Below, in pieces: positions 21,129 to 52,267 of a stretch of 64,000 bases of DNA; position 1 is the first letter of the stretch; every line of letters begins with the position of its first letter. The notes under the pieces were generated by a model that saw only the letters and a program-made list of their open reading frames with translations, searched no databases and was not told where the DNA came from. The DNA comes from Clostridiales bacterium. Its GTDB lineage: Bacteria > Bacillota > Clostridia > Saccharofermentanales > DTU023. Location: contig SFGY01000001.1 in assembly GCA_004556455.1 (NCBI GenBank), forward strand, positions 160,181 to 224,180, in the 5' to 3' direction. Made by a program: the position numbers and the translations under genes.

Positions 21129-21353
21129 TCTGGAATGAATCACACCTTCAAAGGAACGGAAAAAACTTTTTTTATCTTGTGCTTAGCAATGCATTAGCTA
21201 AGTTTCTGGAGTCACTCTCCATCAAGGCAACGAGAGAAGAAGACTAACCTGTGATGAGCAGAAGTAAGAAATAATAGAAAAGTCGCTGCTTCCATTTCAA
21301 AGACATGGAATAAATCATCTTAAGTGTATTAGTAAAAAATCATAGAGGGGAAA

Positions 21354-22256
21354 ATGCCACTTCTTTCAGTTCGTAAGCTCAATAAACATTTTGGACAGAA
21401 GTCAGTCCTTAAGAATCTTTGTTTTCAGGTCAATCAATCTGAAATTGTTGGGCTGCTTGGACCAAACGGCGCAGGTAAGTCTACTGCGATGAAGTGTATC
21501 TGTGGATTAGTTCATTATGATTCTGGTGACATATCCATCGAGGGTCATGATATCAAGGCCGACCGAGTGAGTGCATTAAAGCTTCTGGGTGCAAGTATCG
21601 AGAGTCCGGCACTGTATCCCGAACTGACGGGTGCGGAGCATATCAGACTGATGGCGCAGTGGAGGGATTTGCCCAAAACCGAAATTGCTGAGGCCGAAGC
21701 TTTCTCAAAATTAGGCGAAGCTCTACGCAGGAGAGCTTCCTCTTATTCCACGGGCATGAAAATGCGATTGATTTTAACAATGGTTCTGATGCCCAAACCG
21801 CATTTGATTATTTTAGACGAACCAATGAATGGTCTGGATCCAGAGGGCGTCATTCAGCTTCGCGAAGAACTATGTCACTTAAAAGATCAGGGAACAGGGA
21901 TTCTGCTCTCCTCACATTTGTTGTCTGAATTAGAGAAGATCTGTGATCGAGTACTTATGATTAATCACGGAGCAGTTATATTCGATGGAGCTATTTCTGA
22001 CAAACAAATGAGTAGTGGATACGATATTTATACAAATGAACTACCAAGACTCGAAGCGATTCTCAAAGAAAGAGGGTACATCTGCGCAGCAAAGACAGAT
22101 TCGCAGAGAACAAAATGCTTACATTGTGTTGCCCCTGAGGGCGAGCTCAATGACTTGCTAATGGTCATTGTTAACGAAGGGATCAGACTATCTGACTTAA
22201 AGAAAGCATACAAATCCCTTGAAGACATATATCAAGAAGTGATTGTTGCCAATTGA
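21354..22256 (+). CDS. ABC transporter ATP-binding protein, LanF/BcrA-like (Glu replaces the Q-loop Gln)
   Basis: Walker A GPNGAGKST, signature YSTGMKMRL, Walker B LIILDEPMNGLD. The Q-loop position reads LGASIESPALYPELTGAEHI. Confidence 0.9.
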   Translation: MPLLSVRKLNKHFGQKSVLKNLCFQVNQSEIVGLLGPNGAGKSTAMKCICGLVHYDSGDISIEGHDIKADRVSALKLLGASIESPALYPELTGAEHIRLMAQWRDLPKTEIAEAEAFSKLGEALRRRASSYSTGMKMRLILTMVLMPKPHLIILDEPMNGLDPEGVIQLREELCHLKDQGTGILLSSHLLSELEKICDRVLMINHGAVIFDGAISDKQMSSGYDIYTNELPRLEAILKERGYICAAKTDSQRTKCLHCVAPEGELNDLLMVIVNEGIRLSDLKKAYKSLEDIYQEVIVAN

Positions 22257-22257
22257 T

Positions 22258-23469
22258 ATGAAAAATTTGATTTTTGCAGATTTTAAAAAGAGTATTAGTA
22301 AAAGGTTCCTGCTTTCAATAATCTTAGTATTCCTGCTGTCCTGCATAGCAATTCTGTACTTTTTCAAACAAAATCAAAATGACTTCCCCAGGAGAAGCGA
22401 AGCTCTAGCGGCAGCCGAAAAAGAAAAGCTTCTGTTAGCATACGAATTCACACAAAATCTCTATGCTTTAGCTCAAAAAGCGAATTTGCAAAATCCTTCT
22501 GATGAATTGCTAGCGCAAACAAAACTTTATAAGTTTGAAGGTGATGTCTTACTGAAATATATTTTATTTCAGGAAAAACTGGAAACGCTCAATCAGCAAA
22601 GAGCGAAGAACTTCAATGAAATAAAGAAAACCATTCTGGACATGGACAGCTATGCTTTTGAAAAAATATATAAAAAGAACATTCATCTGATTCATGAAGA
22701 ATATATTTATAATGAAGACATTCACAGTTTATACGCAAGGTTAGTAAAGAATAAAGGAAGCATCGCTCTGGGAGAGACTTTCAGTGATAAAATTCGGGCA
22801 AGTTCACTCTTACATTATATGATTAGTTTTCCTATGCTTTCACTGGCCGCCATGTTTTTTGTGGTCATCATGAATGCAAACAACTGGTCTGTTGAATTTA
22901 CGTCAGGTGGCATTCGACTTTTACTCACTCAACCATTCTCACGGAGAAAAAGTTATTATTCCAAAGTGATCGTGAAGCTTTTTATCACCCTTATATCCCT
23001 TAGTATCTTACTGTTTCTTCCCAGCATAGTATCTTTTTTTATAGGTGGAACTGGTTCTGACATATCCGTACTGATCAATCCCCGAATATTTGATCAACTG
23101 TTCGTTCAATTTTCGCCTGAAACAGTCTTTTTCAGCCTTATCAGCACTTCTATATGGACTTACATCAAATATTATTATCTTCTCTTTATTTCTGTTGCTG
23201 TGTTTATTTTTTCGTTGACAAACATTTTATCTCTCGTCCTGAAAGATTCCGGCGGGGTTGTAATCTCCGTCTGCTTCTTATCTTGTCTGCTCATTGTTTC
23301 TGCTCCATTCAATCCCTTCTCTTATATCCGAATCCCGGAACTGCTAAGCGGGAACTTAGGATATGGTTATTGGAGCAGTCTGCTCATCCTCATGGCTCTT
23401 TCGATCTTTTTGATTACTGGTGGATCGTACATCTTAAAAAGATACCAGGCCATAGAGTTGGCTTCGTAA
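22258..23469 (+). CDS. ABC-2 type permease with a large helical extracytoplasmic domain
   Basis: ATG 22258 lies 1 nt after the ATPase stop. The protein begins MKNLIFADFKKSISKRFLLSIILVFLL (TM1), then a ~170-aa Lys/Glu-rich soluble segment. It then has EFTSGGIRLLLTQPFSRRKSYYSK (ABC-2 permease motif) and five more hydrophobic helices. Confidence 0.7.
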   Translation: MKNLIFADFKKSISKRFLLSIILVFLLSCIAILYFFKQNQNDFPRRSEALAAAEKEKLLLAYEFTQNLYALAQKANLQNPSDELLAQTKLYKFEGDVLLKYILFQEKLETLNQQRAKNFNEIKKTILDMDSYAFEKIYKKNIHLIHEEYIYNEDIHSLYARLVKNKGSIALGETFSDKIRASSLLHYMISFPMLSLAAMFFVVIMNANNWSVEFTSGGIRLLLTQPFSRRKSYYSKVIVKLFITLISLSILLFLPSIVSFFIGGTGSDISVLINPRIFDQLFVQFSPETVFFSLISTSIWTYIKYYYLLFISVAVFIFSLTNILSLVLKDSGGVVISVCFLSCLLIVSAPFNPFSYIRIPELLSGNLGYGYWSSLLILMALSIFLITGGSYILKRYQAIELAS

Positions 23470-23523
23470 TGATGGCATATAATTTAATTGATTGCTTATG
23501 TGAAGGGCGGGTTGATCCGGGAT

Positions 23524-24513
23524 ATGGAAATGATTGCTTGTAAGGATTTGAAATACAGTTACCCTGTTTTTAATAAGGAGCCTGGATTTCTGAATGGGCT
23601 GAAGGATTTTTTCCACCGGGAAATAAGCTATGTTAAAGCCATTGACGGTGTTAATTGTCAGATTGGGCAAGGGGAGTTGATTGGCCTTCTGGGCGAAAAT
23701 GGAGCGGGTAAAACGACTTTAATGAAATTGCTTTCGGGTATTTTGACCCCGCAGGGCGGTGAAGTTTCTGTATTGGGTTATGCTCCGCAACGGCGTGAAC
23801 ACGCTTTTCTCCAAGATATCGGTGTCATGTTTGGACAAAAGACTCAGCTTATATGGGACTTGCCAGCCATCGATACTTTTCATTCGCTTAAAGTGATCTA
23901 TGGAATTGAAGAAGCTGCATTTAAAAAAGATTTAGATTTTCTACTGGAAAAATTAAGTCTTAAAGATAAGCTGTTTGTACCTGTCCGAAAACTTTCTCTC
24001 GGTCAAATTGTCAAGTTCAATTTGATTGCGACGGTGATTCATCGACCTAAGCTTTTAATGCTGGATGAACCTACCATTGGTGTCGATATTCTCAGCCAGA
24101 GCAATATCCATGATTTTCTTCTGAGCTACAATCAGATCTATGGGGCGACCATTTTGCTTTCCAGTCACAATACGAAGGATATAAGGGCTGTGGCAAAACG
24201 CATTCTGTTTTTAGATAAGGGACAGGTTCTCTATGATGGCCCCCTGAGTCAATTTCGCTTCAGCGATAATCCACAGCATTCTTATGTGCTGAGGACAAAA
24301 ACAGATTCACTTCCTGCCGGTTTCGATGCATCCAGGATGCGCTGTGAAAAAATAGACACCGCCTCCTATCATATTAGTGTTCAAACTCCCGGAGATTTAT
24401 CTTGCCTGGATTTTTCTGATATCACTTCCATACAGGAGGAAGAATCAGATCTTGATGAGACGCTGAAAGCTTTTTACAGGGCACAGAATCAAGCGAGGGG
24501 ACAAGATTCATGA
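23524..24513 (+). CDS. ABC transporter ATP-binding protein (family usually paired with two ABC-2/DUF990-type permeases)
   Basis: Walker A GENGAGKTT, Q-loop GVMFGQKTQL, signature LSLGQIVKF, Walker B LLMLDEPTIGVD. The N-terminal extension before Walker A (..FNKEPGFLNGLKDFFHREISYVKAIDGV..) is typical of that subfamily. ATG at 23524 or 23530 could be the start. Confidence 0.9.
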   Translation: MEMIACKDLKYSYPVFNKEPGFLNGLKDFFHREISYVKAIDGVNCQIGQGELIGLLGENGAGKTTLMKLLSGILTPQGGEVSVLGYAPQRREHAFLQDIGVMFGQKTQLIWDLPAIDTFHSLKVIYGIEEAAFKKDLDFLLEKLSLKDKLFVPVRKLSLGQIVKFNLIATVIHRPKLLMLDEPTIGVDILSQSNIHDFLLSYNQIYGATILLSSHNTKDIRAVAKRILFLDKGQVLYDGPLSQFRFSDNPQHSYVLRTKTDSLPAGFDASRMRCEKIDTASYHISVQTPGDLSCLDFSDITSIQEEESDLDETLKAFYRAQNQARGQDS

Positions 24514-25262
24514 AATATCTTGTTTTGATGCGCAATGCGTTCAAAAGAAAAATGATTTATCGCTCACAGATTGTCCTTGAATTATTCACGAACGGTATCA
24601 TCTACTTCACAACCATCTGCTTATGGACAAGTGTCTTAAATAGCGGAGCAGATTTAGCTGGATATGATAAGAACCAATTGTCGACCTACTTTCTCTTTAC
24701 CATATTTTCGGGAATACTTTTTTCTTTTGAACCGTGTTTTACCCTTGGGAATGCGATACAGAACGGGTCCTTGTCTGTCACTCTGCTGCGACCGGTCAAT
24801 TATTTTTTTATGGATTATGCAAGACAGCTTGGTAGCAAGTTATTCTATATACTCTTGCTTGTGCCGCTTATCTTGTTAAAGGCGAAGTACCCGCTGAGCC
24901 TGATCGTTTACATCCTCAGTGCCTTTAGCATGTTTTACGCTTTTATGGCGGTACTTTCACTCGTTGGCTTCATCCTGGAAAACACCTGGCCTCTTCGTCC
25001 TGTCTTATCTGCCTTGTTTATGCTTTTGAGCGGTCAACTTTTTCCCCTTGATATTTTGCCGGAAGGCATCTATAAAACTCTTGTTTTTAATCCTTTCTCG
25101 CTCGTCGGCTATGTTTTTTCGAAGACCCTTATCGGCAGTTTCGAGTTAGAGGCCATTTTCTTATACAGCTGTATCAATGGCGTCTATTTCTTGCTTTTCT
25201 TTATCTTCTTTCAACATGGATTCAGAAAACTGATCTATCGTTATGAGGGGGTCAGGGCATGA
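24510..25262 (+). CDS. ABC-2 family permease (DUF990-like), subunit 1
   Basis: Six predicted TM helices and the motif GSLSVTLLRPVNYFF. It has a 4-nt overlap with the preceding ATPase gene. Confidence 0.75.
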   Translation: MKYLVLMRNAFKRKMIYRSQIVLELFTNGIIYFTTICLWTSVLNSGADLAGYDKNQLSTYFLFTIFSGILFSFEPCFTLGNAIQNGSLSVTLLRPVNYFFMDYARQLGSKLFYILLLVPLILLKAKYPLSLIVYILSAFSMFYAFMAVLSLVGFILENTWPLRPVLSALFMLLSGQLFPLDILPEGIYKTLVFNPFSLVGYVFSKTLIGSFELEAIFLYSCINGVYFLLFFIFFQHGFRKLIYRYEGVRA

Positions 25263-26041
25263 AAAAGTATTTCTCTTTATTCTCTGTTTTCTCACGTCAG
25301 AGTTTGAAGTCATTTGCGATATATCGGGCAACAGCAGTGATTACGGCCACTTTTGGCGTGCTCTTCTTTACCGTTGAGTGCATCCTGGGTATGGTTTTGT
25401 TTTCACTTACAGATGATATTGTCGGCTATTCTTTTCAGGATTATTTGCTGATGATCTCAGTGGCCTCGCTGATCACTTATCTGTATCAATTCTTTTTTGC
25501 TTCCGCCCATGAGAATTTAGCTGAGGTCATTCTGGAAGGCGAGTTGGATACCGTTCTCCTTCGTCCGGTGAACTCGCTTTATTACTACAGTTGTTTCCGC
25601 CAGGATTATTCCTGCATAATCAATGTCCTCGTTGTTATACCCTTCATTGTTGGTTTATATATCCAATACAATGTCTTTTCGATATTTAATATCATCGTAT
25701 TTTTGCTCTTTATCATCCTGGCTGTCCTTTGTGTTTACATCGTTAATCAGCTCTTCGTTACTCTGGTTTTCTTCTTTGAAAACTCGACACGGCTGCTCGG
25801 TCTAAGTGAATATCTCTACGATGTGGCGACCAGGCCCATAGCGATCTATCCCAAAGCCATCATAAAGGTTCTCATGTATGTCGTTCCCTATGGCTTTGTC
25901 ACCAACATGAGCTGGCAGATACTCATACGAGGTGTGCCCGTAACCGCCTTTATTTTTCTTGCGCTCTGGGATGTGCTGGGACTTATGCTTGCCAATGCAC
26001 TTTGGAATAAAGGCATTAAAAAGTATGTTTCATCCAATTAA
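25259..26041 (+). CDS. ABC-2 family permease (DUF990-like), subunit 2
   Basis: Paralogous architecture with the motif GELDTVLLRPVNSLYY. It has a 4-nt overlap with the previous permease gene. Confidence 0.75.
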   Translation: MKKYFSLFSVFSRQSLKSFAIYRATAVITATFGVLFFTVECILGMVLFSLTDDIVGYSFQDYLLMISVASLITYLYQFFFASAHENLAEVILEGELDTVLLRPVNSLYYYSCFRQDYSCIINVLVVIPFIVGLYIQYNVFSIFNIIVFLLFIILAVLCVYIVNQLFVTLVFFFENSTRLLGLSEYLYDVATRPIAIYPKAIIKVLMYVVPYGFVTNMSWQILIRGVPVTAFIFLALWDVLGLMLANALWNKGIKKYVSSN

Positions 26042-42692: not shown

Positions 42693-43337
42693 CTAACGGT
42701 CCATGCGGGTGAGACGACCAGCGTCCATCTCGTGGACCGTATCACAGAGGAGCCTGATATCGGCGTTAGAATGCGTCGCAATGAGCAGGGTTTTTCCCTG
42801 CTCTTTTAATTGAAGAAAAAGCTGTCGCATATCGTTTTGAGAATGTCGATCAAGACCGCTCATGGGTTCGTCCAGAATAAGTAAATCCGGGTTCTCCATA
42901 ATGGCTTGAGCAATGCCAAGGCGCTGCTTCATGCCGAGTGAAAAATGACCCACGTATTTTTTGTCGTCAGGATCCAGACCAACGCATGTAATCGCACGCC
43001 GGATCTCCTCTAGCCCTGCCTTATTTTGCAGAGCAGCCAGCATTTTCAGGTTTTGGACGGCACTGTAACGAGGCAGGAATCCTGGATGCTCAATTATAAC
43101 GCCAATATCAGGGGGATAATCAAAATCTTTTCCCACGAACTTTCCTCGCACCTCAACACTTCCGGAATCAAGTTTAATTAAGCCGCAAATCGCTCGCAGC
43201 AAGACCGTTTTACCAGAACCATTTTCACCCACTATGCCGTGAATTTCACCTGCTTTCAGACTCATGTTGACGTGATCAAGAACTATTTGCCTGCGATAGG
43301 TTTTCACCGCATCCGTGATTTTGATGATGGTTTCCAT
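42693..43337 (-). CDS. ABC transporter ATP-binding protein, LanF/BcrA-like (E-loop)
   Basis: Walker A GENGSGKTV, signature FSLGMKQRL, Walker B LLILDEPMSGLD, H-loop ATHS. The Q-loop position reads IGVIIEHPGFLPRYSAVQNL. This is the last gene of the minus-strand operon. Confidence 0.9.
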   Translation of the reverse strand: METIIKITDAVKTYRRQIVLDHVNMSLKAGEIHGIVGENGSGKTVLLRAICGLIKLDSGSVEVRGKFVGKDFDYPPDIGVIIEHPGFLPRYSAVQNLKMLAALQNKAGLEEIRRAITCVGLDPDDKKYVGHFSLGMKQRLGIAQAIMENPDLLILDEPMSGLDRHSQNDMRQLFLQLKEQGKTLLIATHSNADIRLLCDTVHEMDAGRLTRMDR

Positions 43338-43356
43338 GATGAACGAACCCTTTCAT

Positions 43357-44289
43357 TTATTCTATGGATAAAAAATCTTTCCTGCGGAATAGCACATAGC
43401 ACAAAAAACTCAGAATCAGTACGAGCAGGAAAAGGACGATCATGGCCGTGTGCTCTGTAATCATTGGATTTCCAGGATCACGGCTCAGATTAAAGCTATA
43501 AAGCAACATCCAGCTTGCAGGGAAATATTTTCCCCACAGGGGATCGCCGAATGCCTGTAAAAATTCCGGAGATAAGGCGACAATGAATGCAATGAGACCG
43601 CCATAAGCTTTGTTTTTTTCCCCGACCAGTAGGGAAATAAGGAAAATCAGCAGTGCCACCATGAGATATTCCAGAAGTGAAATGACGGTGCAGATTTTCA
43701 TTGCCTGAAGAGGGCTTAAGTTTTGCACGATCGGGCGGGCAAACGCCATAAAACCAACGCCTGCAGAATTCGCCATCATGTAATCAGTACTTGTCAGGTG
43801 GATTAACTTTCCCCAATCAAAACTAAAATACAGGTTAGGGACGCAAAAAATGAGACTGAGCAGAACTGTAAAAATAAAATAGAGAAAAGAGCAAGCAAAG
43901 ATGAAGACCATCCGCGAGGCAAAAAAAGCCTTTTTGCCACAACGCAGAATCTCATCTACAGAGTTTCCGCTCAAAAAAGGCGCATCCGCAAAAAGCAGAA
44001 TGGAGCCTGCAAGGAGCTGACGATAATAGACAGAAGAAAAGATGGGATAGACCCACGGTGTCACTCGATAATTCATCAGCACGCAAGCCTTGCGGATGTT
44101 CTCATAACAGGGCCACCAGGTAATAAGGCAGAGGTAAATAATGAGCAGAGCGATTCGTCGATTCCCTTTCAGAGCCAGAAACTGATTTTTTACAAGGTAA
44201 ACAGTTCTGTAAGCCATACTTGTCTGCTTTGATGGAGACAGCAGAGATGGTGTTGAGGGCACAAATTGCTGGGCTGATTGACAAAGCAT
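43357..44289 (-). CDS. ABC-2 type permease (six predicted TM helices)
   Basis: The protein is hydrophobic throughout. GAAAGGGA lies 7 nt upstream of ATG 44289. ATG 44217 (MAYRTVYLVKNQF...) is an alternative. The gene is 19 nt upstream of the ATPase gene. Confidence 0.65.
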   Translation of the reverse strand: MLCQSAQQFVPSTPSLLSPSKQTSMAYRTVYLVKNQFLALKGNRRIALLIIYLCLITWWPCYENIRKACVLMNYRVTPWVYPIFSSVYYRQLLAGSILLFADAPFLSGNSVDEILRCGKKAFFASRMVFIFACSFLYFIFTVLLSLIFCVPNLYFSFDWGKLIHLTSTDYMMANSAGVGFMAFARPIVQNLSPLQAMKICTVISLLEYLMVALLIFLISLLVGEKNKAYGGLIAFIVALSPEFLQAFGDPLWGKYFPASWMLLYSFNLSRDPGNPMITEHTAMIVLFLLVLILSFLCYVLFRRKDFLSIE

Positions 44290-44303
44290 ACGGGAGTCCC
44301 TTT

Positions 44304-45131
44304 CTATCTTTTCTCTAGGATTTTGCGCAAGCGTAAAACAGCCATGGCTGAAAAAAAGGTCGCTACGAGCAATATTTCCATGACATTCAGGGTAAAAACG
44401 AGCCCGGCAGGGATGTCTTCTAAAACCCGTGCTCCTCCCGAAAATGCCAAAGCTGGTGCAAAAGCCCTGAATCCGAAAGCAAAGTATAAAACGCGGCTCA
44501 GATAGACATAGCCAAGATAAGTCGCACCGACCGTCATGTAAAGGTCATCAGTGAAAACAGTCGTCATCAGCGCAAAAAGCGACCAGACAGCACAATGCAG
44601 GGAATTATTTGCAATGATTAAAAGGTAATAAATAAAGGGGGATTCGATTTGCAATCTTCGAAACGGCTTGAGCAGGGCAAAAATTTCCGGCTCTGGCAAC
44701 ATACCTAAGTTAGCTTGATTCAAAGCGAATACAGTCAAGGTACAGAAACTGTAAGAGATAAAAGCCACGGCAAAGCTGCTCCAAAAACAGGCCAGACATT
44801 TAGACAGCATATAATCATCCGCCCTAATCCGCACAAAAATATAAGGGAGCAAACCACTCTTCTTATCTTCCTGGTATGACAGGGAATAGGCCAGACTGCT
44901 GATGGCTATACTACTTATGGATACCGCATTTTGTAAAAAACATGTTGAGTAGTAATTCAGGCCGATCGCCTGACCTCGCGTTATCATAAATTCACTGAAG
45001 AACAAGCCGAAACGACTGAGAAAAAAGAGAACGCAGGCGACAGCAAATGAAGTACTTAATATACTTTGCTGAAGTTGTTGTCGTATAATCGCAAATGGTT
45101 CTCTCTTCATTTGATCAGCACTTTTATTCAT
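44304..45131 (-). CDS. ABC-2 type permease (LanE/G-like size and topology)
   Basis: About 275 aa with six hydrophobic segments. ATG 45131 lies 1 nt after the lipoprotein stop with AAAGG 5 nt upstream. The ORF-track ATG at 45146 would overlap the upstream gene by 14 nt. Confidence 0.65.
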   Translation of the reverse strand: MNKSADQMKREPFAIIRQQLQQSILSTSFAVACVLFFLSRFGLFFSEFMITRGQAIGLNYYSTCFLQNAVSISSIAISSLAYSLSYQEDKKSGLLPYIFVRIRADDYMLSKCLACFWSSFAVAFISYSFCTLTVFALNQANLGMLPEPEIFALLKPFRRLQIESPFIYYLLIIANNSLHCAVWSLFALMTTVFTDDLYMTVGATYLGYVYLSRVLYFAFGFRAFAPALAFSGGARVLEDIPAGLVFTLNVMEILLVATFFSAMAVLRLRKILEKR

Positions 45132-45132
45132 A

Positions 45133-46326
45133 CTAACCTTTGCCATTTCCCGTAAATTGAGGAGTCGGAAGTGTTAACAGTTCGCCACTAACCGCATCAA
45201 AAATAATTTCTTTGAAAGAATCTCCTCCAAATTCACCGGCTTGTTCCGGCAGGAAGTGAATACAAAGAAGATAGGCCGGTGTAAATAAGACGTACTGGCT
45301 GTCCTCTTCGTTCAGATAACGTATTGGTGCATAAAGCAGTTCAAGATTAAACAGTTCCTGCGCCTTCGCGCCACGAACAAGTGGTAGATGACTCAGGTAT
45401 TCTTCAGCTTTAGCTCTGGCCTCCTCTGCGCTCATGATGGTTTGTGGCGTTCCTTCTTTGCGGATCAATTGCCAACGGTTAAATATTTCAAACTGTTCGG
45501 ATTGTTTTTCGCTTATGCGGTAATGAATCACGGCAGAAGGAGAGCCAAAGGACAGTTCATCATAAATGGGAAGACCATTGATCACTTGCATCGCTTCCAG
45601 ACCGTAGGCATCTGCCGGAGCGACTTCACCCGGGACATTAAGCAATGCAGATCCCTTTATGATCGTTTCAATATTGCGAATATAATAAGCCTCATAGCCC
45701 AGCGTGTCTAAGATTTTTTCTGTCCTGTGGATGAGTTCTGGCCCAGAAAGGAAGGCACATTCTTCCGGCGACTGCTCCTGTCCGCGGCGGTATGGACTGC
45801 GGGGCAGAAGAATAGAATCAATGGAATTGATGGTTAAATCGGAGGGGGCGACTTCCTCTGGAAAGGCTCTGAAGCTTAGCATAGACATTTTTTTCCCAAC
45901 GCTAAGTCGGATGTCCTTCCCGCCTTCAACGTAAAAAATGGAGCTGTTTTCTGAACTTTCCGGGCTCTTTTTCCAGACGTAATCCGGAAAAGCCGATTGT
46001 GCTTTGCTTTCATCAAAATAATCAAGGCTCAGCACAAGCTGTTCATAGGCTGATTGCGGCGTAATTCTCAGATGGGCATCTGCTGCATTCGCTTGCTTGA
46101 CATCCGGCGCACCAGAAGCCGAAGAACCTGAAGGTTCTACGTATTGAGGAACCTGCTCTGTATGGACTTCTTCGACACTAACCTTTAGTTCCGCCTGACG
46201 GGTCGGCGATTCATTGGCAATCGGCTGGATCTCCTCTGAACAAGAAACAAGGAACAAACACAAGGCAAGACAGACCACGCTTAGCAGTATGCAGCGTCCG
46301 AAATGTGTTAGATTTTTCTTTTTCAT
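45133..46326 (-). CDS. Lipoprotein of unknown function (397 aa)
   Basis: The signal peptide ends in the lipobox LFLVSC (MKKKNLTHFGRCILLSVVCLALCLFLVSCSEE). The mature part is soluble, and I recognise no motif in it. Confidence 0.7.
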   Translation of the reverse strand: MKKKNLTHFGRCILLSVVCLALCLFLVSCSEEIQPIANESPTRQAELKVSVEEVHTEQVPQYVEPSGSSASGAPDVKQANAADAHLRITPQSAYEQLVLSLDYFDESKAQSAFPDYVWKKSPESSENSSIFYVEGGKDIRLSVGKKMSMLSFRAFPEEVAPSDLTINSIDSILLPRSPYRRGQEQSPEECAFLSGPELIHRTEKILDTLGYEAYYIRNIETIIKGSALLNVPGEVAPADAYGLEAMQVINGLPIYDELSFGSPSAVIHYRISEKQSEQFEIFNRWQLIRKEGTPQTIMSAEEARAKAEEYLSHLPLVRGAKAQELFNLELLYAPIRYLNEEDSQYVLFTPAYLLCIHFLPEQAGEFGGDSFKEIIFDAVSGELLTLPTPQFTGNGKG

Positions 46327-46376
46327 AATTCAATACTCCATTTTGTGCTAGAAGATGTTGTCATAGTCCACAACTG

Positions 46377-46416
46377 CCGGATCGGGCACCTGGGAAAAGC
46401 CAAAGTGCCCGATCGG
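46377..46416 (-). other. Strong intercistronic RNA hairpin between the small-protein gene and the lipoprotein gene
   Basis: The arms CCGGATCGGGCAC (46377-46389) and GTGCCCGATCGG (46405-46416) give 12 bp with one bulged G and a 15-nt loop. No U-tract follows on the transcribed (minus) strand. Confidence 0.6.
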
Positions 46417-46426
46417 AGTTATAAGT

Positions 46427-46837
46427 TTACGGAATCCACAGTCCACTGACTTCAATTTTGCCGCCGGGAACAGTTGTGTACATGTTGGATGCAAACTGAT
46501 ATGAACTGCCCGTTTGTCCTTGCCCTGCAAGATATGAAAAAACAGTCATATACTGTGAACCAACAAAAATATCTACATTTAATTGCCTGAGCTGTGTAGC
46601 GTAGGATAAATCATCTGCGTTGCGAACGCGGAAATACACCTCATCTGTGTTGGGATCAAAGTAAGTGGCGTTGGTGACCTTACCACGTGCGTAGTTCAGA
46701 TTCTCAGTCTTTTCTACTGGTCCAGATAAAATTGGATTAGGACCATTGTACAAAGTAAAGCTAAACGCTGAATACGCAAATACCGGGACTGAAAAGATTA
46801 GCATTGCCACAAGGAGCAATAAACTGGCTTTTCTCAT
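46427..46837 (-). CDS. Small secreted protein of unknown function (136 aa precursor)
   Basis: Signal peptide MRKASLLLLVAMLIFSVPVFA/YS. The mature ~115 aa are rich in Tyr, Asn, Gly and Ser with no Cys. GGAGG lies 11 nt upstream of ATG 46837. The ORF-track start at 46855 is a TTG overlapping the SD. Confidence 0.6.
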   Translation of the reverse strand: MRKASLLLLVAMLIFSVPVFAYSAFSFTLYNGPNPILSGPVEKTENLNYARGKVTNATYFDPNTDEVYFRVRNADDLSYATQLRQLNVDIFVGSQYMTVFSYLAGQGQTGSSYQFASNMYTTVPGGKIEVSGLWIP

Positions 46838-47084
46838 GATGTTATTTACCTCCAAATTAATCAGAAAATCGCTGAAATGATGGCCTCCTACTCTCAGCAG
46901 AGCTAAGGCCCTTTTGGGGATTTGTCTAGACGCGCAACCTTGGAAACTGGATCTGTGCTCTGACAGTTATGATCTGCCTTGAGCGACGGGAATCATATTT
47001 GTTTTTCACCATACTGGCCAGGTCAGGAGAAAATCCTTGAATTGCATCAGCTTAAAAATCGTAATAGGTAGGTGTTGTATCAGA

Positions 47085-47519
47085 TCATTGATAATTTCTT
47101 GAATTAGAAATAACTGTGACAGTTTCAATAAAGTTGGAATCTTGGTAAACTTTTGCAATCAGCTTTGCTCGGTAGGTTTCCCCATAAGTTAGATTGAAGT
47201 GGGTCCTTTCTATAGTCAATCCATTGCCAGTCCATCGATCAACTTCTGACCAGAAACCAGAACTGTTTTGCTTTTCACATATGAGAGTAAGGTGGCAGCT
47301 ATAGCCTTGATAAAGGGAAACCATTCCGGAACAGATGGCACTACTTCCAGAAATGCGGCAATCTACAGCAGCAAGTTGTGTTCCAATAAAATAAACGCTA
47401 TTGTCACCTCCGTTTACGTGTAGGTCTGAAGTAGCTACTACCTTTTGGAGAAAGGTAAATGCAAATAGTAGCAGGAATAGTGTAGTCATATACACAATAA
47501 GGCATTTCTTTTTTTTCAT
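47085..47519 (-). CDS. Small secreted Cys-containing protein of unknown function (144 aa precursor)
   Basis: AAGGAGG lies 7 nt upstream of ATG 47519. The sequence begins MKKKKCLIVYMTTLFLLLFAFTFLQKVVA/TSD. The mature part has four Cys (..VDCRISGSSAICSG...GYSCHLTLICEK..). Confidence 0.6.
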   Translation of the reverse strand: MKKKKCLIVYMTTLFLLLFAFTFLQKVVATSDLHVNGGDNSVYFIGTQLAAVDCRISGSSAICSGMVSLYQGYSCHLTLICEKQNSSGFWSEVDRWTGNGLTIERTHFNLTYGETYRAKLIAKVYQDSNFIETVTVISNSRNYQ

Positions 47520-47556
47520 TTTCATACCTCCTTGGCGCTTAAGCCTTTCATTAATA

Positions 47557-47585
47557 AAAACGTACAAGGATGTTAAGGTGTTACA
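47557..47585 (-). promoter_or_regulatory. Candidate ECF-type promoter TGTAAC-17 nt-CGTTTT driving the minus-strand operon
   Basis: On the minus strand, TGTAAC corresponds to plus 47580-47585. A 17-nt spacer ACCTTAACATCCTTGTA follows, then CGTTTT (plus 47557-47562). This is about 35 nt upstream of the AAGGAGG/ATG of the first gene. It resembles the AAC ... CGT architecture of ECF promoters. Confidence 0.4.
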
Positions 47586-47587
47586 AT
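47579..47587 (+). promoter_or_regulatory. Candidate extended -10 element TGTTACAAT for the sigma-factor gene
   Basis: TGnTACAAT at 47579-47587 overlaps the candidate ECF -35 on the opposite strand. It ends only 4 nt before ATG 47592. Confidence 0.35.
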
Positions 47588-47591
47588 ATTT

Positions 47592-48209
47592 ATGAAAAAT
47601 TTCGAAAAGTTTTTGAGAGGTACGATGGTCATGTTTTTTCTACCAGCTATTGTGACACAGGCCGTTGGTTCGGAAGATGATTGGGCATTTATTCATAGGC
47701 TTTACCAGAATTATGCCATTTTTCTCTTCTTCCAAGCGAGAAAGTATGATGTACCCATGATGAATGCAGAAGATATTGTTCAGGAAACGATGTTGCGTGT
47801 CATTGAAAATCTGGAAAAATATCGTTCGCTTCCTTGTAACACCTGGCCAGCCTTATTCGTTTCTATTATCAGAAATATTGCCATTGATGCTTTGCGGAAA
47901 TCAGGACATGAAATATTGACCAGCGAAAATGATTTGCTTGAAAATACAGAAAAAGCAGAGCAGGTGCTTCAAAACGTTGAGGAACGTCTCAATCGGGAAA
48001 CTGAATATCAGGAGTTACGAGACGCCTTGAACCGTTTGGATCATAAAGAACTTGATATACTGCGATCAAAATATTTGCTGGAAGAATCGGATGCCACTAT
48101 TGGCAAAAGATATGGTCTAAAAGCCGCCAGCGTGCGTGTTTATCTGATGAGGATCCGATGTAAACTAAGAAAGATGATGGAGGAGGGAAGAAACAATGGC
48201 CAGGACTAA
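47592..48209 (+). CDS. ECF-type (group 4) sigma-70 family RNA polymerase sigma factor
   Basis: Region 2 is NAEDIVQETMLRVIENLEKYRS. Region 4 HTH is LDHKELDILRSKYLLEESDATIGKRYGLKAASVRVYLMRIRCKLRK. Given the promoter geometry, ATG 47625 (GAGAGG 4 nt upstream) is an alternative start. Confidence 0.9.
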   Translation: MKNFEKFLRGTMVMFFLPAIVTQAVGSEDDWAFIHRLYQNYAIFLFFQARKYDVPMMNAEDIVQETMLRVIENLEKYRSLPCNTWPALFVSIIRNIAIDALRKSGHEILTSENDLLENTEKAEQVLQNVEERLNRETEYQELRDALNRLDHKELDILRSKYLLEESDATIGKRYGLKAASVRVYLMRIRCKLRKMMEEGRNNGQD

Positions 48210-48936
48210 AGATACAAGTTGTGATTGGTATGACTTGAGACATGCCCTGCTTGAACAGGCAAAACGCGAGAGCGCTGAGCTTCTGGCTGAACTTCCCGAA
48301 GATCTGCGTCCCGTATCTCCAGATATAGATGCTAAGATACATACTGCCTTAAAGTGCGAATTAAGGAAAAAACACTTCCTTACTTTTGGCAGAAAGCTCT
48401 ATCCGGCCATTAGTAAAATTGCTCTTATCTTCCTTGCCTTATTTCTGATCTGTGTCCTGCTGGTCACACAGGTGTCTGCACTGCGCAAGAGGTTTTATGA
48501 CTGGATTATCAGTACACAAACAGATCACATTGAATTACGGGAGAGTAAAGAGCCATTAACGATAAATGAAAAGAATAATGAAGAACAGTATATCCGAGGT
48601 ATGGCATCTATTTATTTGACCTATGTACCTCACGATCTTACTTTGCATCATGAGGAAGTGACGGAGATTTCGCGAACCTTGGTGTACCAGGAGAGGGATA
48701 GTATTAATCATCGTTTTACCATCAATGCACTCAGAAAAAACAGTACTATTCAAATTGACAATAGTGCTCTGAAGGAAGTTGAGATCAAGGGAGGGGTACC
48801 TGCATACCTGACAGAGAACAAAGGTGAAATATCGCTCATTTGGTCATTGAATGATTATTTGATCACTGTAAGCAGCACACTAGGTGAAGAAGAAACAATG
48901 CGCATTGCTGAGGGTCTAAGTTTGGATTTGCGCTGA
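48196..48936 (+). CDS. Single-pass membrane anti-sigma factor candidate (DUF4367-like extracytoplasmic domain)
   Basis: It has a 14-nt overlap with the sigma gene. The protein has a ~75-aa cytoplasmic N-terminus and one TM (ISKIALIFLALFLICVLLV). The extracytoplasmic domain ends ..ISLIWSLNDYLITVSSTLGEEETMRIAEGLSL, a pattern I associate with DUF4367 anti-sigma proteins of Firmicutes. Confidence 0.75.
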   Translation: MARTKDTSCDWYDLRHALLEQAKRESAELLAELPEDLRPVSPDIDAKIHTALKCELRKKHFLTFGRKLYPAISKIALIFLALFLICVLLVTQVSALRKRFYDWIISTQTDHIELRESKEPLTINEKNNEEQYIRGMASIYLTYVPHDLTLHHEEVTEISRTLVYQERDSINHRFTINALRKNSTIQIDNSALKEVEIKGGVPAYLTENKGEISLIWSLNDYLITVSSTLGEEETMRIAEGLSLDLR

Positions 48937-49200: not shown

Positions 49201-50993
49201 TTATTTACCCAGCTGTGCGTCATTCATGTTGCTCTGGCTGCCCCAGCACTCAAGCATATTGACGGGGTCGTTGTAGTCTGCGACAAGGCCTCCGCGAGCG
49301 ACCATGAAGTGGCCAGCGGCGCGTTCATTGAGGAAGGTAGCCCAGTCCATCTGATCAATGGTCATCGTAATGCCCACTTCGGCAAGATCCTGCTGGATCA
49401 GCTCGGCGATTTTCTGATGGGATTCAGATTTGTTCGTCAGATAGTCCAGGTGAAGCGGGGTGGCAGAGGAGAGCTTATCTCCGTCGAATTCAAAGCCAGC
49501 CTCTTTAAGTAGTTCGATGGCTTTGTCATTATCCACTTCAAGACTGTAGTAGCCTTTTTCGTCGGCGACGGGATAGCTGTAATCCTCGTCATTCTCACGG
49601 AAAATTCCACCGTGGCCATCACTCATCCCTTCGGGAACAAAGGCGTTGGCCAAAATCTGTCCAGCCTGCGTCACGGTGTCCACGATGTATGCGCGGTCAA
49701 TCAGACAGGCTATGGCTTTGCGCATGGCTTTGGCCTGCTCCAGGGTTTTGCCGTCAAAGAGATCGGACTTCACATTAAAGGTGATGTAATAGGTGCCTAA
49801 AAGGGAAACCTTGTGCACCTCAGGATTATTCTCTTTAAGCAGAGCCGGAAGTTCGTCAGTGGGAATGCCATTGCTAAAGTCCAGATCGCCGGCTTTGTAG
49901 GCGGAGAAGGCCGTGGCGACATCGTTTGTGAGCATCTGATTGAGCGTCTCTATTTTGACTTCATCAGCACGGTGGTAATTCGGATTTTTTTCGAATGTCA
50001 TGGATTCTTTGTGTTTCCACTCCTTCATGACAAAAGGTCCGTTGCTGACAAAGCCTGCATCGCTGCACCAACTCCCGGGATTGATGATTTTCCCATTTTC
50101 ATCCCGGTAGCCTTTGCCATTTTCGACACTGGCCTTCTGTACGGGGAAAAGCTGGGGAAGGCACATAGGTCGAGGAAATACGGGCATGGGACTTTAAGTT
50201 TGACGGTCAGCGTCTGTCCATCCTCCGAAGCATGAACATTCAGTTTGTCCGCCATCTCATCGGCAAATTCAGGGCTGATTTCCTTGCCTGGTGTCCCATC
50301 TTCCTTAGGCAGGTATTCTGGCGGAAGCTCGGGATAACCTTCAATGATATTGAAGATATAAGCTTTATCCGCAGCCGTCAAAAAGTTTACTGCACGCTTC
50401 CAGGTGTAAACAAAGTCGTTGGCGTTCAGAGGGCTGTCATCAGACCACTTTAAGTCCGGACGCAAATGGAAACTGTAGACCAGACCGTCATCACTGACTT
50501 CATAGCTGTCCACCAGATCGGGGACAATTTCTTTGTCTTTATTGTAGGTGAAAAGTCCTGCAAACAAATTCACAATCAGGCAGTTCCCATCGACCGCAGT
50601 ATTCAGAGAAGGATCGATGGTTTCCGGTTCTTCCGCGAGGAAAAGATTCAGTTCTTTACGATCACCACATTCAGCCTGGCCAAAATAAAGAATATTGTAT
50701 GGATTGACGTAATAGCCCTGCAAATCCTCTTTCGCCATAAAAGTTGAGTTGTAATAGTAGATGGGGATGCAGGCTCCGGTATCCATCAGCATATCTTCCG
50801 CCTGATGCAGAAGGGCCTCACGCTTTTCAAAATCCACTTTGTTTTTTATTTTATCAATGAGTTCGTCATAGGGCTTCCAGTCCGGAAGTTCGACCTTTGC
50901 CTCTACCTGGACAGGCCAGGCGGCCGCCAGAAAAGTGAAAAGGCAAAATGCGGCAATCACAAGTGCCAGAAAACGCTTTGTCTTCATGTCCAT
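49201..50993 (-). pseudogene. Oligopeptide/dipeptide ABC substrate-binding lipoprotein-like gene (family 5 SBP), disrupted by a 1-nt frameshift
   Basis: Two overlapping ORFs (50025-51083 and 49201-50187) carry the N- and C-terminal halves of one SBP. Restoring one T in the minus-strand run TTTTCCCC (plus GGGGAAAA, 50143-50150) joins ..DLCAFPSF to FPVQKASVENGKG.. in a single frame. AAGAGG lies 6 nt before ATG 50993 (MDMKTKRFLALVIAAF...). Confidence 0.8.
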
Positions 50994-51223
50994 TACAAAC
51001 CTCTTTCCTTTGATGATGCTTCTCAGAATTTTTGCACGAAATAAAAAAGAAGATAGATATCCTTTCATTATTTTAAGGTGCAAGAATAATTAGAATTCCT
51101 AATAATATTAACTCGTCAGCAAAAGTGAAGTCAATCGATGACATAGGAGCAGGAACGAGATATTTTGTGGAATCAGGGAAGGAAGTGGGCAGCAATCAGG
51201 ACCCGTGCTTTTCTTTAAATTAT

Positions 51224-52267
51224 TCAGTCAGATGGCACAGATTCTATTGATTTTTCAGTTTCCTGATATAAGTCCTGCTTGCGCAGCTGATTCAGCGGGT
51301 TTTGGGCGACCGCTTTTTGCAGCATTTTATCGTTAATATGGGTATAAATCTCCGTGGTGGCGACCGATTCGTGTCCCAGGATCTGCTGCAGGCTGCGCAG
51401 GTCAACCTGACCGTACTGATACATCAACGTTGCGGCAGTATGACGTAGTTTGTGTGCGGAATAGCGTTTGGGATCAAGCCCGGCTTTCAGCAAATATTTT
51501 TTGACGACATTTTCGACGGCCCTCTGGGAAATGCGCCGCCCATTCCGGCTGATAAAGAGAGCATTCTCGTCCGGCTTTTTTCCGGGAACTCTCTCTTCCA
51601 GCCACTCTGTCAGAGCTTCGATGCATAGCTCGTTGAGGTAAACTGTGCGCTCTTTGTGGCCTTTGCCAATGACACTGAGGCGCTCGCCGCGAATATCATC
51701 GACATCGATACCAACAAGTTCAGAAAGTCGCATGCCACAGTTTAAGAAGAGGGTCAGAATGCAGTAATCACGGGTTCCCAGGCGCGTGTCCTCGTCGGCA
51801 GCTGAGCGAAGCAGAGCAGTGCTTTCCTCCAGATCAAGAAATCTGGGGAGGGATTTCATCTGTTTTGGCGCTTCCAGCTCGGCCGTGGGGTTCGTGTCAA
51901 TCACATGGACCTTGTTGCTGAGGAAGTTGAAAAAAGCTCGCAGAGAAGAGACCCGCCTGGCTCTTGCGGCTGGGCCATTATTTCGCTCCAGACTGAGCCA
52001 GGAGATAAAACGGTAGATATCGCCGAGTGTAACCTCGCGCAGCAGATTTTCGTCGATATCTTCGAGGTCGATGTCCGCCAGTTCTGTGTGGGCGGGACAA
52101 AGGCCCTTTGTCCTTTTATACCAGCGGAAAAAGAGGCGAAGATCATAATGATATTCACGCATGGTGGTTGCTGAGCGCTCGCGCACGCCGGAAAAGTAGC
52201 TGAGAAATTCATCCAGCCAATGGAAGCTATCGCTGACAGGTCTGGTATTTTCCCGATCCTGGCTCAA
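51224..52267 (-). CDS. Tyrosine-type site-specific recombinase (XerC/XerD-like)
   Basis: The catalytic set is present: R in NCGMRLSEL, K in GKGHKERTV, HKLRHTAAT (H-x-x-R), and GHESVATTEIYTH (H and nucleophile Y). The N-terminal SAM-like domain has EYHYDLRLFFRW. Confidence 0.88.
   Translation of the reverse strand: MSQDRENTRPVSDSFHWLDEFLSYFSGVRERSATTMREYHYDLRLFFRWYKRTKGLCPAHTELADIDLEDIDENLLREVTLGDIYRFISWLSLERNNGPAARARRVSSLRAFFNFLSNKVHVIDTNPTAELEAPKQMKSLPRFLDLEESTALLRSAADEDTRLGTRDYCILTLFLNCGMRLSELVGIDVDDIRGERLSVIGKGHKERTVYLNELCIEALTEWLEERVPGKKPDENALFISRNGRRISQRAVENVVKKYLLKAGLDPKRYSAHKLRHTAATLMYQYGQVDLRSLQQILGHESVATTEIYTHINDKMLQKAVAQNPLNQLRKQDLYQETEKSIESVPSD

Follow-up and report, generated by a model that had tools for sequence, protein, structure and literature searches.

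A sigma factor-headed, strain-variable locus encoding an E-loop ABC transporter, a lipoprotein and small secreted proteins in a Clostridiales bacterium

Genes and regulatory elements of the locus

We analysed a stretch of 64,000 nucleotides from an uncultured Clostridiales bacterium of the gut (assembly GCA_004556455.1, contig SFGY01000001.1; the whole stretch is called the window here), in which positions 42693-48936 hold an extracytoplasmic function (ECF) sigma factor gene and an anti-sigma factor gene, divergent from six co-directional genes for two small secreted proteins (s1 and s2A), a lipoprotein, two permeases and the ATPase of an ATP-binding cassette (ABC) transporter. The eight open reading frames (ORFs) lie where the original prediction, made from the letters of the DNA, had placed them, and the gene sizes, the lipobox LVSC and the four cysteines of s1 agree with it. 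Its view of an ECF sigma/anti-sigma pair facing an operon that starts with signal-peptide proteins is borne out by the ORFs and the family matches, and the absence it reported of lanA, lanB, lanC, lanM and lanT and of a two-component system was confirmed for about 10 kb around the locus. The operon had been described as tightly packed; the genes are co-directional, but gaps of 247 bp between s1 and s2A and of 100 bp between s2A and the lipoprotein gene interrupt it, the latter containing a stem-loop. Conservation in more than 20 related contigs with ratios of nonsynonymous to synonymous divergence (dN/dS) of 0.03-0.7 supports the status of the ORFs as genes, and all eight proteins have identical copies in metagenome-assembled genomes (MAGs) labelled 'Clostridiales bacterium' at NCBI. 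Matches to Pfam and NCBIfam are confined to the ATPase, the sigma factor and the anti-sigma ectodomain; both permeases, the lipoprotein, s1 and s2A had none at E <= 1. The G+C content over the cassette is 0.42-0.45, compared to about 0.50 in the surroundings. Below, the anti-sigma factor, sigma factor, promoter and s1 are called the sigma head, and the genes from s2A to the ATPase cassette A.

The sigma factor belongs to the ECF type (group 4) and has 192 amino acids (47631-48209, plus strand, start at 47631 or 47625). It matches TIGR02937 with 81.4 bits (cutoff 42.9) and Sigma70_r2 with E = 2.3e-10, has an additional r4_2 match and contains only the sigma-2 and sigma-4 regions. Gene callers report 192-194 amino acids. 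A longer frame of 205 amino acids starting at 47592 is disrupted in most strains by a 1-bp polymorphism in a T run (T4/T5) between 47592 and 47625, and thus the start was placed at 47625/47631. On contig L014 (829-1407; L numbers denote related loci) the sigma gene is split into ORFs of 97 and 54 amino acids, which may be a metagenome assembly error. The start of the putative anti-sigma factor gene (246 amino acids, 48196-48936, plus strand) overlaps the sigma stop by 14 nucleotides, so that the two genes are translationally coupled. The protein has one transmembrane (TM) helix at about residues 75-93 according to hydropathy and an ectodomain that matches Pfam DUF4367 (43.2 bits, cutoff 22.1); its N-terminus matched neither an anti-sigma domain nor zf-HC2. 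It is 96-98% identical across all strains.

A pattern match, read directly from the DNA, places an ECF-type promoter, TGTAACACCTTAACATCCTTGTACGT (AAC-N17-CGT), at 47560-47585 on the minus strand, about 35 nucleotides upstream of the s1 ribosome-binding site. It overlaps an extended -10-like element of the opposite strand, TGTTACAAT, which precedes the sigma gene. The ECF-like promoter suggested earlier for the operon holds up well as a candidate, since AAC-N17-CGT is invariant in 25 of 25 intergenic copies from related loci, including those where the same head stands before the two other cassettes described below. The window contains three matches of the TGTAAC-N17-CGT type where 1.45 are expected; the weight of the promoter therefore comes from its position and conservation and not from the count. 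Inside the sigma gene lies a second motif of this kind, TGTAACACC-N14-CGT (47835-47860, plus strand), which has 18 of 26 positions in common with the s1 promoter. It is probably due to chance and was seen in only three of the examined sequences.

The first gene behind the promoter, s1 (47085-47519, minus strand), encodes a protein of 144 amino acids with a Sec signal and a mature part of about 114 residues with four cysteines. s1 appears to be a species-restricted orphan: its matches come from the same species and from the chimeric protein P0106, and none was found in Pfam, NCBIfam, PDB, PHROGs or PADLOC. The second gene, s2A (46427-46837, minus strand), encodes a Sec-signal protein of 136 amino acids that is unrelated to s1 in an hhalign comparison. 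Both mature proteins are slightly acidic with a net charge of -2.

Immediately after the s2A stop codon a 14-bp stem-loop (46380-46414, minus strand) without a clear U-tract was found. The 104-nucleotide region between s2A and the lipoprotein gene that contains it (46327-46430) has a folding energy of -34.4 kcal/mol (z = -3.8), and the stem is 100% paired in six allele copies, including two compensatory pairs. Non-homologous hairpins occupy the same position in four distant loci (L075, L077, L078 and L079) and behind s2B, the secreted protein gene of another cassette of this species; those of L077 and L078 are weak (z about -1 to -1.5). The stem-loop is likely to act as a leaky terminator or to stabilise the mRNA, and in this way to determine how much small protein is made relative to transporter.

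A recurrent module around an E-loop ATPase

The ATPase (214 amino acids, 42693-43337, minus strand) has intact Walker A, Walker B and H-loop motifs and the signature SLGMKQR, and matches Pfam ABC_tran with E = 3.8e-30. Its best NCBIfam model is TIGR03740 (lantibiotic protection) with 166.5 bits, the cutoff being 309.75. The Q-loop glutamine had been read as replaced by glutamate, which was confirmed by alignment: the glutamate of IGVIIEHPGF, the E-loop residue, aligns with the glutamate of IGVLIESPPLY in an annotated LanF-type ATPase (35% identical to the window ATPase) from a Clostridium tagluense plasmid. In a study of NisFEG, the E-loop was among the most conserved elements of LanFEG transporters, required for immunity and dispensable for ATP hydrolysis, the transporters had two distinct TM chains, and ATPases with an E-loop have to date been linked to immunity against peptide antibiotics (bioRxiv 10.1101/2025.10.09.681468).

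Permease 1 (275 amino acids, multi-pass, 44304-45131, minus strand) is the positional equivalent of a permease of about 260-270 amino acids in related modules. Compared directly with the Clostridium counterpart by hhalign, it shows weak homology (E = 0.0026, 12% probability), and metagenomic members with 28-55% identity to the Clostridium protein bridge the gap. Permease 2 (multi-pass, 43357-44289, minus strand) has 310 or 286 amino acids and the motif YRVTPW...LF.DAPF...RCG, and is unrelated in sequence to permease 1. The shorter form is favoured by the relatives and by NCBI; the start is uncertain because Met25 is absent from the L001 allele. Permease 2 has tblastn matches of E = 6e-15 and 9e-13 on Clostridium plasmids and a blastp match of 3e-21 (alignment A6).

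The plasmid matches lie on megaplasmids of C. tagluense and C. estertheticum and revealed the gene order lipoprotein (381 amino acids), permease (260), permease (284) and E-loop ATPase (214). The ATPases of these modules are 53% identical to the one in the window, and the C. tagluense module adjoins a MutFEG operon. In the same plasmid search s1, s2A, s2B, the lipoprotein, permease 1 and the anti-sigma factor had no tblastn matches. The C. estertheticum plasmid also carries a second variant (L071, 16-2789) without the lipoprotein; its permeases have 275 and 234 amino acids, and its E-loop ATPase, of 213 amino acids, shares 42% identity with the one in the window.

A scan of metagenomes with the permease 2 alignment identified 15 distant loci with the same gene order. 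The core of four genes is complete in L070, L071, L075, L077/L083, L078, L079, L081, L084 and L085, and partial contigs (L074, L076, L080, L082, L086 and L087) hold parts of it. In six of the nine distinct complete loci, an s2A-like gene with about 110 mature residues is located directly upstream of the lipoprotein gene. An s2A-like protein, the lipoprotein, two permeases and the E-loop ATPase form a conserved module in several Firmicutes, seen on the Clostridium megaplasmids and in about 12 metagenome loci. The question of co-conservation raised by the original prediction has a divided answer: the set of s2A, lipoprotein, both permeases and ATPase is found jointly in further genera, and the sigma factor, anti-sigma factor and s1 are not conserved along with it. 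A single dedicated system of all eight genes is therefore not supported.

The lipoprotein (397 amino acids, 45133-46326, minus strand, lipobox at residues 26-29) had no Pfam match when searched alone, and an hhalign comparison with the two Clostridium lipoproteins alone was negative. With a profile of nine family members (A15), the window subfamily (A4) gave a positive result of 96% probability and E = 4.6e-9 over residues 184-380. This profile matches PDB entry 5COZ ('uncharacterized protein') over its full length with E = 6.9e-10. Among the nine members, Pfam identified DUF6034 in three (best E = 5.9e-9; above the cutoff in L075 with 33.1 bits against 27), YycI in two and PepSY in two. Since the family matches DUF6034/YycI/PepSY and 5COZ, the lipoprotein is best assigned to a tandem YycI/PepSY-like extracytoplasmic type and does not appear to be a homologue of NisI or SpaI. 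The family match resides in the C-terminal half; the N-terminal two-thirds are variable between strains. A HMMER search of 1.84 billion representatives returned the protein itself, fragments and a weak multi-repeat cadherin match, and structure prediction (AlphaFold2, four sequences) gave no usable fold (pLDDT 33). The literature search found no mention of DUF6034, and 5COZ only in a survey of protein surfaces.

s2A appears to define a new family of beta-rich secreted proteins of about 110 residues with the motifs F.F.L, FRVR and a C-terminal W.P (alignment A13, with members from L075, L077, L078, L079 and L084), whose genes are located directly upstream of the lipoprotein gene. The net charge of the members varies, as judged by eye. 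Within the species, s2A alleles are 74% identical with a synonymous divergence (dS) of about 1.0. The best PDB matches of s2A are non-significant antibody V domains (E = 0.6-8), a weak hint at an immunoglobulin (Ig)-like sandwich, and structure prediction (AlphaFold2, three sequences) gave no usable fold (pLDDT 40). Word-index searches with the lipoprotein, s2A and s1 returned the same species only; PDB sequence searches with s1, s2A, the lipoprotein alone and the secreted proteins of the other cassettes (s1' and s2B) found nothing significant, and no matches were obtained in PADLOC and PHROGs. The three exported proteins had been called unassignable; this still applies to s1, whereas the lipoprotein has now found a family and s2A provides its own. 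In L010 (2296-2306), an additional A in an A run truncates s2A to 44 amino acids, which again may be a metagenome assembly error.

The regulators in front of the module differ from locus to locus and comprise PadR, a two-component system, a protein with a helix-turn-helix (HTH) and a tetratricopeptide repeat (TPR) part, an XRE protein with a TM helix and the ECF sigma/anti-sigma pair. In every locus that could be typed they are of a signal-responsive kind, three of them with a membrane-embedded sensing part and PadR possibly so. The PadR regulator matches PDB PadR proteins with E = 3e-9 and has a small neighbour that looks membrane-like by eye; one locus has a response regulator with a histidine kinase of two TM segments; in the HTH-TPR regulator no TM segment was found. 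This last regulator (416 amino acids, L078, 2051-3660) is accompanied by an ORF of 60 amino acids with a hydrophobic start, the two being located some 230 bp ahead of the s2A-like gene at the front of the module, a layout that resembles an RRNPP quorum-sensing pair.

One sigma head before three cassettes

Comparison of contigs from the same species revealed a constant frame, with a Xer-type recombinase on one side and the M18 peptidase and NifU/NifS genes on the other, and variable content in between. Two types of head were found. The first is the sigma head; the second consists of an HTH_3 (XRE) protein of 169 amino acids, which has a TM helix at its C-terminus, and an ORF of 53 or 74 amino acids behind it. 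This HTH_3 head is present for instance at L005 8074-8757 and L018 5306-6089, where the short signal-peptide ORF has different ends in different strains. An 86-bp remnant of the region with the 53-aa ORF remains downstream of s1 in the window (46932-47017).

Three cassettes follow the heads. Cassette A consists of an optional s2A, the lipoprotein of 39x amino acids, permeases 1 and 2 and the 214-aa E-loop ATPase. Cassette B has an optional s2B of 137 amino acids, which is not related to s2A, a lipoprotein of 363 amino acids, an ATPase of 286, membrane proteins of 417 and 698 and a second lipoprotein of 459 amino acids. In cassette C a 120-aa protein, s1', is followed by two FtsX-like permeases (weak FtsX match) and a 220-aa ATPase, for which the best model is TIGR03608 (lactococcin-972-type ABC) with 180 bits, below the cutoff of 254.85. 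At the E-loop position, the ATPases encoded by cassettes B and C carry glutamine. One sigma head thus precedes three different cassettes in strains of one species. The layout of head, s1, s2A and cassette A with intact genes was found in at least 10 contigs; the L021/L024 scaffold carries the sigma head twice, in front of cassette B and again in front of cassette A, and in MAG GCA_028724965 the sigma head stands before cassette B and cassette A is located behind an HTH regulator. The cassette A transporter is also kept in some genomes without s2A or without the sigma head.

s1 is 99% conserved and accompanies both cassette A and cassette B. In the strains with cassette C, s1' has the first 39 codons, which cover the signal peptide and the residues next to it, in common with s1 and is unrelated in the remainder, the breakpoint being located at window position 47402. 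For s1, s1' and s2B, none of the searches found relatives outside the species.

Further joints are visible in cassette A itself. A 135-bp piece of the lipoprotein gene (window 45916-46050) recurs with about 89% identity in L005 (5230-5364) and L017 (18780-18914), where it is located in the spacer between the gene for the 459-aa lipoprotein and the SBP_bac_5 gene, as a trace left by an earlier recombination of cassettes. Between contexts with the sigma head and contexts with the HTH head, similarity starts only inside the lipoprotein gene, at window position 46260. Cassette A is therefore without a conserved promoter of its own and would depend on the head located upstream. The stretch from s1 to the lipoprotein gene contained no sigma-70-like promoter or canonical terminator above chance level.

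The tyrosine recombinase next to the locus (51224-52267, minus strand) is XerC/XerD-like and bounds the variable locus in all strains. An integron-like cassette system was considered and ruled out: the recombinase scores 235 bits on the XerC model TIGR02224 and 85 on integron integrase, and no attC-like repeats were present. A search for repeats flanking the cassettes was likewise negative. With a XerC/D-like recombinase and without attC-like repeats, cassettes are probably exchanged by homologous recombination.

Divergence differs strongly between the parts of the locus. Between the window and other strains, flanking housekeeping genes have dS values of 0.15-0.37 with dN/dS of 0.03-0.05. For the head (sigma factor, anti-sigma factor and s1; window against L001, L004, L008, L021 and L010) dS is 0.01-0.06, 5-20 times lower than in the neighbours, and dN/dS is 0.27-0.71, based on few substitutions. 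The low dS together with the two copies on the L021/L024 scaffold suggests that the head was spread or exchanged recently within the species. s2A has a dS of about 1.0, a dN of 0.14 and a dN/dS of 0.14, and its alleles appear to be older than the species background. In the lipoprotein (dS 0.31-0.44) the dN/dS of 0.35-0.43 is the highest in cassette A and is concentrated in the N-terminal two-thirds, compared to 0.14-0.24 in the permeases and 0.03-0.05 in the ATPase.

Relation to known systems and possible function

The original prediction saw a mimic of a LanFEG transporter with its LanI lipoprotein. For the transporter the resemblance stands, as far as the E-loop is concerned; for the lipoprotein it is one of position, since the family matches DUF6034/YycI/PepSY and 5COZ. 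Similar to NisFEG/NisI and SpaFEG/SpaI, the cassette has the E-loop glutamate, TIGR03740 as closest model, the signature S.GMKQR, two different TM subunits and a lipoprotein encoded together with the transporter. In contrast to these systems, the ATPase is below the family cutoff, the permeases have no LanE/LanG (MutE/MutG) match, the DUF6034/YycI/PepSY-like lipoprotein has no match to a NisI/SpaI-type domain, the gene order is I-E-G-F, lanA/B/C/M/T are absent, the cassette is not located beside a lantibiotic cluster, and a secreted protein of about 110 amino acids and a hairpin stand in front of it. By analogy, the system would work most like LanFEG/LanI or like orphan lantibiotic-resistance transporters, but by ATPase cutoff, permease families, lipoprotein fold and genomic context it falls outside LanFEG/LanI.

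Orphan transporters for resistance against antimicrobial peptides with their own sensors are known from C. difficile (CprABC-CprRK) and Enterococcus (BcrR-BcrAB). As in these, an accessory ABC exporter is found here under a membrane-embedded sensor; one relative of cassette A lies behind a response regulator and a histidine kinase, as in CprABC-CprRK, and in some strains a membrane-anchored XRE-type HTH regulator precedes cassette A, as BcrR does, although with one predicted TM segment instead of four. In the window, unlike in CprABC and BcrAB, the sensor is an ECF sigma/anti-sigma pair and secreted proteins are encoded in the same operon. ECF sigma/anti-sigma control of lantibiotic clusters is known for microbisporicin (MibX/MibW) and planosporicin (PspX/PspW). 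The window resembles these in that an ECF sigma factor with a putative membrane anti-sigma factor lies beside, and presumably drives, an operon with ABC and lipoprotein genes, but they are actinobacterial, are part of full lantibiotic biosynthesis clusters and have other anti-sigma ectodomains. The sigY-yxlCDEFG operon of B. subtilis also links an ECF sigma factor to an ABC transporter. It had been named as a loose precedent and should be taken as no more than that: its gene content is different, the window sigma factor is divergent and not co-operonic, and it scores 41.4 bits on the SigY model PRK09638, far below the cutoff of 194.

Two further comparisons concern the secreted proteins. The lactococcin 972 operon encodes a Sec-dependent bacteriocin, a membrane protein and an ABC ATPase, and the locus is similar in that a small Sec-signal protein directly precedes ABC genes and that the cassette C ATPase is nearest to TIGR03608, with a weakly FtsX-matching permease beside it. 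It differs in that Pfam and NCBIfam detect no Lcn972-family domain in s1, s1', s2A or s2B, that the window cassette has an E-loop LanF-like ATPase and a lipoprotein, and that the TIGR03608 score is below the cutoff. In polymorphic toxin and bacteriocin loci a conserved leader is combined with swapped cargo. Here, too, the promoter and the first 39 codons are kept and followed by alternative, unrelated mature domains with their own downstream cassettes, and the variation occurs between strains at one chromosomal site; in contrast, no recognised toxin or immunity domain is encoded, the 'immunity' would be a multi-gene ABC transporter, and s1 is nearly invariant. What is new here are the permeases, the lipoprotein partner and the secreted partner of the E-loop ABC module, as well as a sigma head that also serves other cassettes.

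We tentatively favour, with somewhat less than even confidence, the view that the cassette is an inducible, LanFEG-like pump for protection of the cell envelope with new extracellular accessory proteins. An envelope signal would inactivate the anti-sigma factor, and the freed sigma factor would transcribe the operon, the stem-loop leaving the s1/s2A message in excess of the transporter message. s1 and s2A would exit via Sec, and the lipoprotein would stay attached to the membrane on its outer side. Two ATPase subunits together with permeases 1 and 2 would form a LanF2EG-like heterotetramer that expels a compound targeting the membrane or the cell wall, and the YycI/PepSY-like lipoprotein and s2A might bind or shield the compound or hand it over outside the cell. 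The sensor head is interchangeable: by recombination, the species connects one promoter and signal peptide to changing cassettes of secreted proteins and ABC transporters. The pump is favoured because the module is found under different signal-responsive regulators in almost every lineage, several of them membrane-embedded, and because it survives without s2A; such separable parts fit a protective pump with optional accessories.

Several points weigh against a pump. Neither permease matches a model for LanE/LanG or ABC-2, the ATPase is far below the TIGR03740 cutoff, and the structure predictions for s2A and the lipoprotein are unusable. That the sigma promoter also drives the transporter genes beyond the hairpin is an inference, and the pump leaves s1 without a role. 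To our knowledge, Bce-type, CprABC and orphan LanFEG resistance modules rarely begin with abundant secreted proteins, and cassette swapping and a shared signal peptide with a variable mature domain are, by analogy, more typical of effector/immunity loci. It is possible, though less likely than a pump, that s2A and/or s1/s1' are Sec-dependent, unmodified bacteriocins, with the lipoprotein and ABC transporter providing self-immunity, the sigma pair gating or auto-inducing expression and strains swapping toxin/immunity cassettes. This would explain better than a pump why the secreted proteins are promoter-proximal and presumably over-expressed, why polymorphic cassettes have a signal peptide in common and why the s2A alleles are old. 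The order of small secreted protein, hairpin, lipoprotein and ABC genes, with the hairpin position kept even in non-homologous loci, is consistent with it, as are the three alternative cassettes of the species, each of which begins with another secreted protein and has an ABC transporter of its own behind it, the full divergence of s1 and s1' after 39 codons, the similarity of the cassette C ATPase to the lactococcin-972 type and the dN/dS of the lipoprotein, the highest in the operon. The transporter is kept where s2A is missing or frameshifted, as expected for orphan immunity, one relative is found behind the quorum-sensing-like pair of HTH-TPR regulator and small ORF, and the region has a lower G+C content. 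However, s1, s2A, s2B and s1' have no similarity to bacteriocin or toxin families in Pfam, NCBIfam, PDB, plasmids or PADLOC, the mature s1 and s2A are slightly acidic, with a net charge that varies by eye in the s2A family, the TIGR03608 score is below its cutoff, s2B is often missing from cassette B, and s2A is under purifying selection. Being 99% conserved beside both cassettes A and B, s1 is in addition not tied to one immunity system. A bolder and somewhat less probable proposal is that s2A-like proteins are a new family of Sec-secreted, unmodified bacteriocins with dedicated immunity by an E-loop ABC transporter and a YycI/PepSY-like lipoprotein, and that the sigma head, with its fixed promoter and signal peptide, is a plug-in expression platform into which cassettes A, B and C are exchanged by recombination inside the signal-peptide coding region.

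A housekeeping role at the cell surface, without a link to antagonism, seems unlikely: the substrate of the ABC transporter would be a lipid, a glycolipid or a wall precursor that is exported or flipped, the lipoprotein and the small proteins s1 and s2A would contribute to the structure or assembly of the surface, and the variation would result from pressure by phages or host immunity. The resemblance of the lipoprotein family to YycI/PepSY regulators of wall homeostasis would fit, and SsdC, a sporulation protein of LolA-like type, contains the DUF4367 domain of the anti-sigma factor as well (bioRxiv 10.1101/2025.01.13.632879). The most variable parts, s2A and the N-terminal two-thirds of the lipoprotein, would be exposed, and weak matches, to Ig V domains for s2A and to cadherin repeats for the lipoprotein, suggest beta-sandwich surface modules, but for the proteins themselves these matches are non-significant. 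Moreover, the module is accessory (absent, swapped or plasmid-borne), is always under inducible sensors, and has an ATPase of the subfamily so far tied to peptide-antibiotic immunity. It is less likely still that the juxtaposition is an accident of recombination, with the sigma factor controlling s1 and perhaps s2A only and the lipoprotein and ABC genes being transcribed independently or poorly. The head and cassette A are separable and their joint is scarred (86-bp remnant, 135-bp lipoprotein fragment, split SBP_bac_5 gene), a strong hairpin stands between s2A and the lipoprotein gene, and the low dS of the head points to recent spread. Against an accident argue the lack of a sigma-70-like promoter or canonical terminator beyond chance between s1 and the lipoprotein gene and of a conserved promoter of cassette A, the s2A-hairpin-lipoprotein layout kept in other genera, and the at least 10 contigs in which the whole architecture is present with intact genes.

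The locus presents a recurrent, previously unannotated five-gene module of gut and food-associated Firmicutes, whose engine is an ATPase type known only from lantibiotic immunity and whose lipoprotein family has one solved member (5COZ). If it is a resistance pump, it would be a new determinant of the tolerance of the microbiota to envelope-active peptides; if the small protein is a toxin, it would represent a class of bacteriocins that is new both in itself and in the logic of its immunity. The regulation is modular in both directions: one ECF promoter and signal peptide are reused before three unrelated transporter cassettes, and cassette A in turn is found elsewhere under XRE, PadR, two-component or HTH-TPR regulators.

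The neighbouring genes are NifS/NifU, the M18 peptidase, an SBP_bac_5 pseudogene, XerC, asd, LacI and ThrE. The M18 peptidase has at most 56% identity to proteins of the GTDB species set, the top relatives being Oscillospiraceae/Ruminococcaceae MAGs, and a contig scan with it found relatives of at most 56% identity and no syntenic cassettes. The SBP_bac_5 gene, for a peptide-binding protein (49201-51083, minus strand), consists of two overlapping ORFs (328 and 352 amino acids) with an apparent frameshift; it is intact in L008 and L012 (597 amino acids), so that the split reflects either a frameshift or a fault in the assembly. Other strains have the gene on the opposite side of the head, and it marks one rearrangement joint of the locus.

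The species carries many uncharacterised ABC modules. A segment of low G+C content in the window (0.38-0.42; 19797-26041, plus strand) contains a second group, with another E-loop ATPase (LGASIESPALY, 21354-22256) followed by a 408-aa membrane protein and, further along, a Q-loop ATPase (23488-24513) with two permeases of about 250 amino acids. About 6 kb past the recombinase, contigs L009 (254-3269) and L016-L020 encode a 717-aa multi-pass protein without family match and a 289-aa ABC ATPase.

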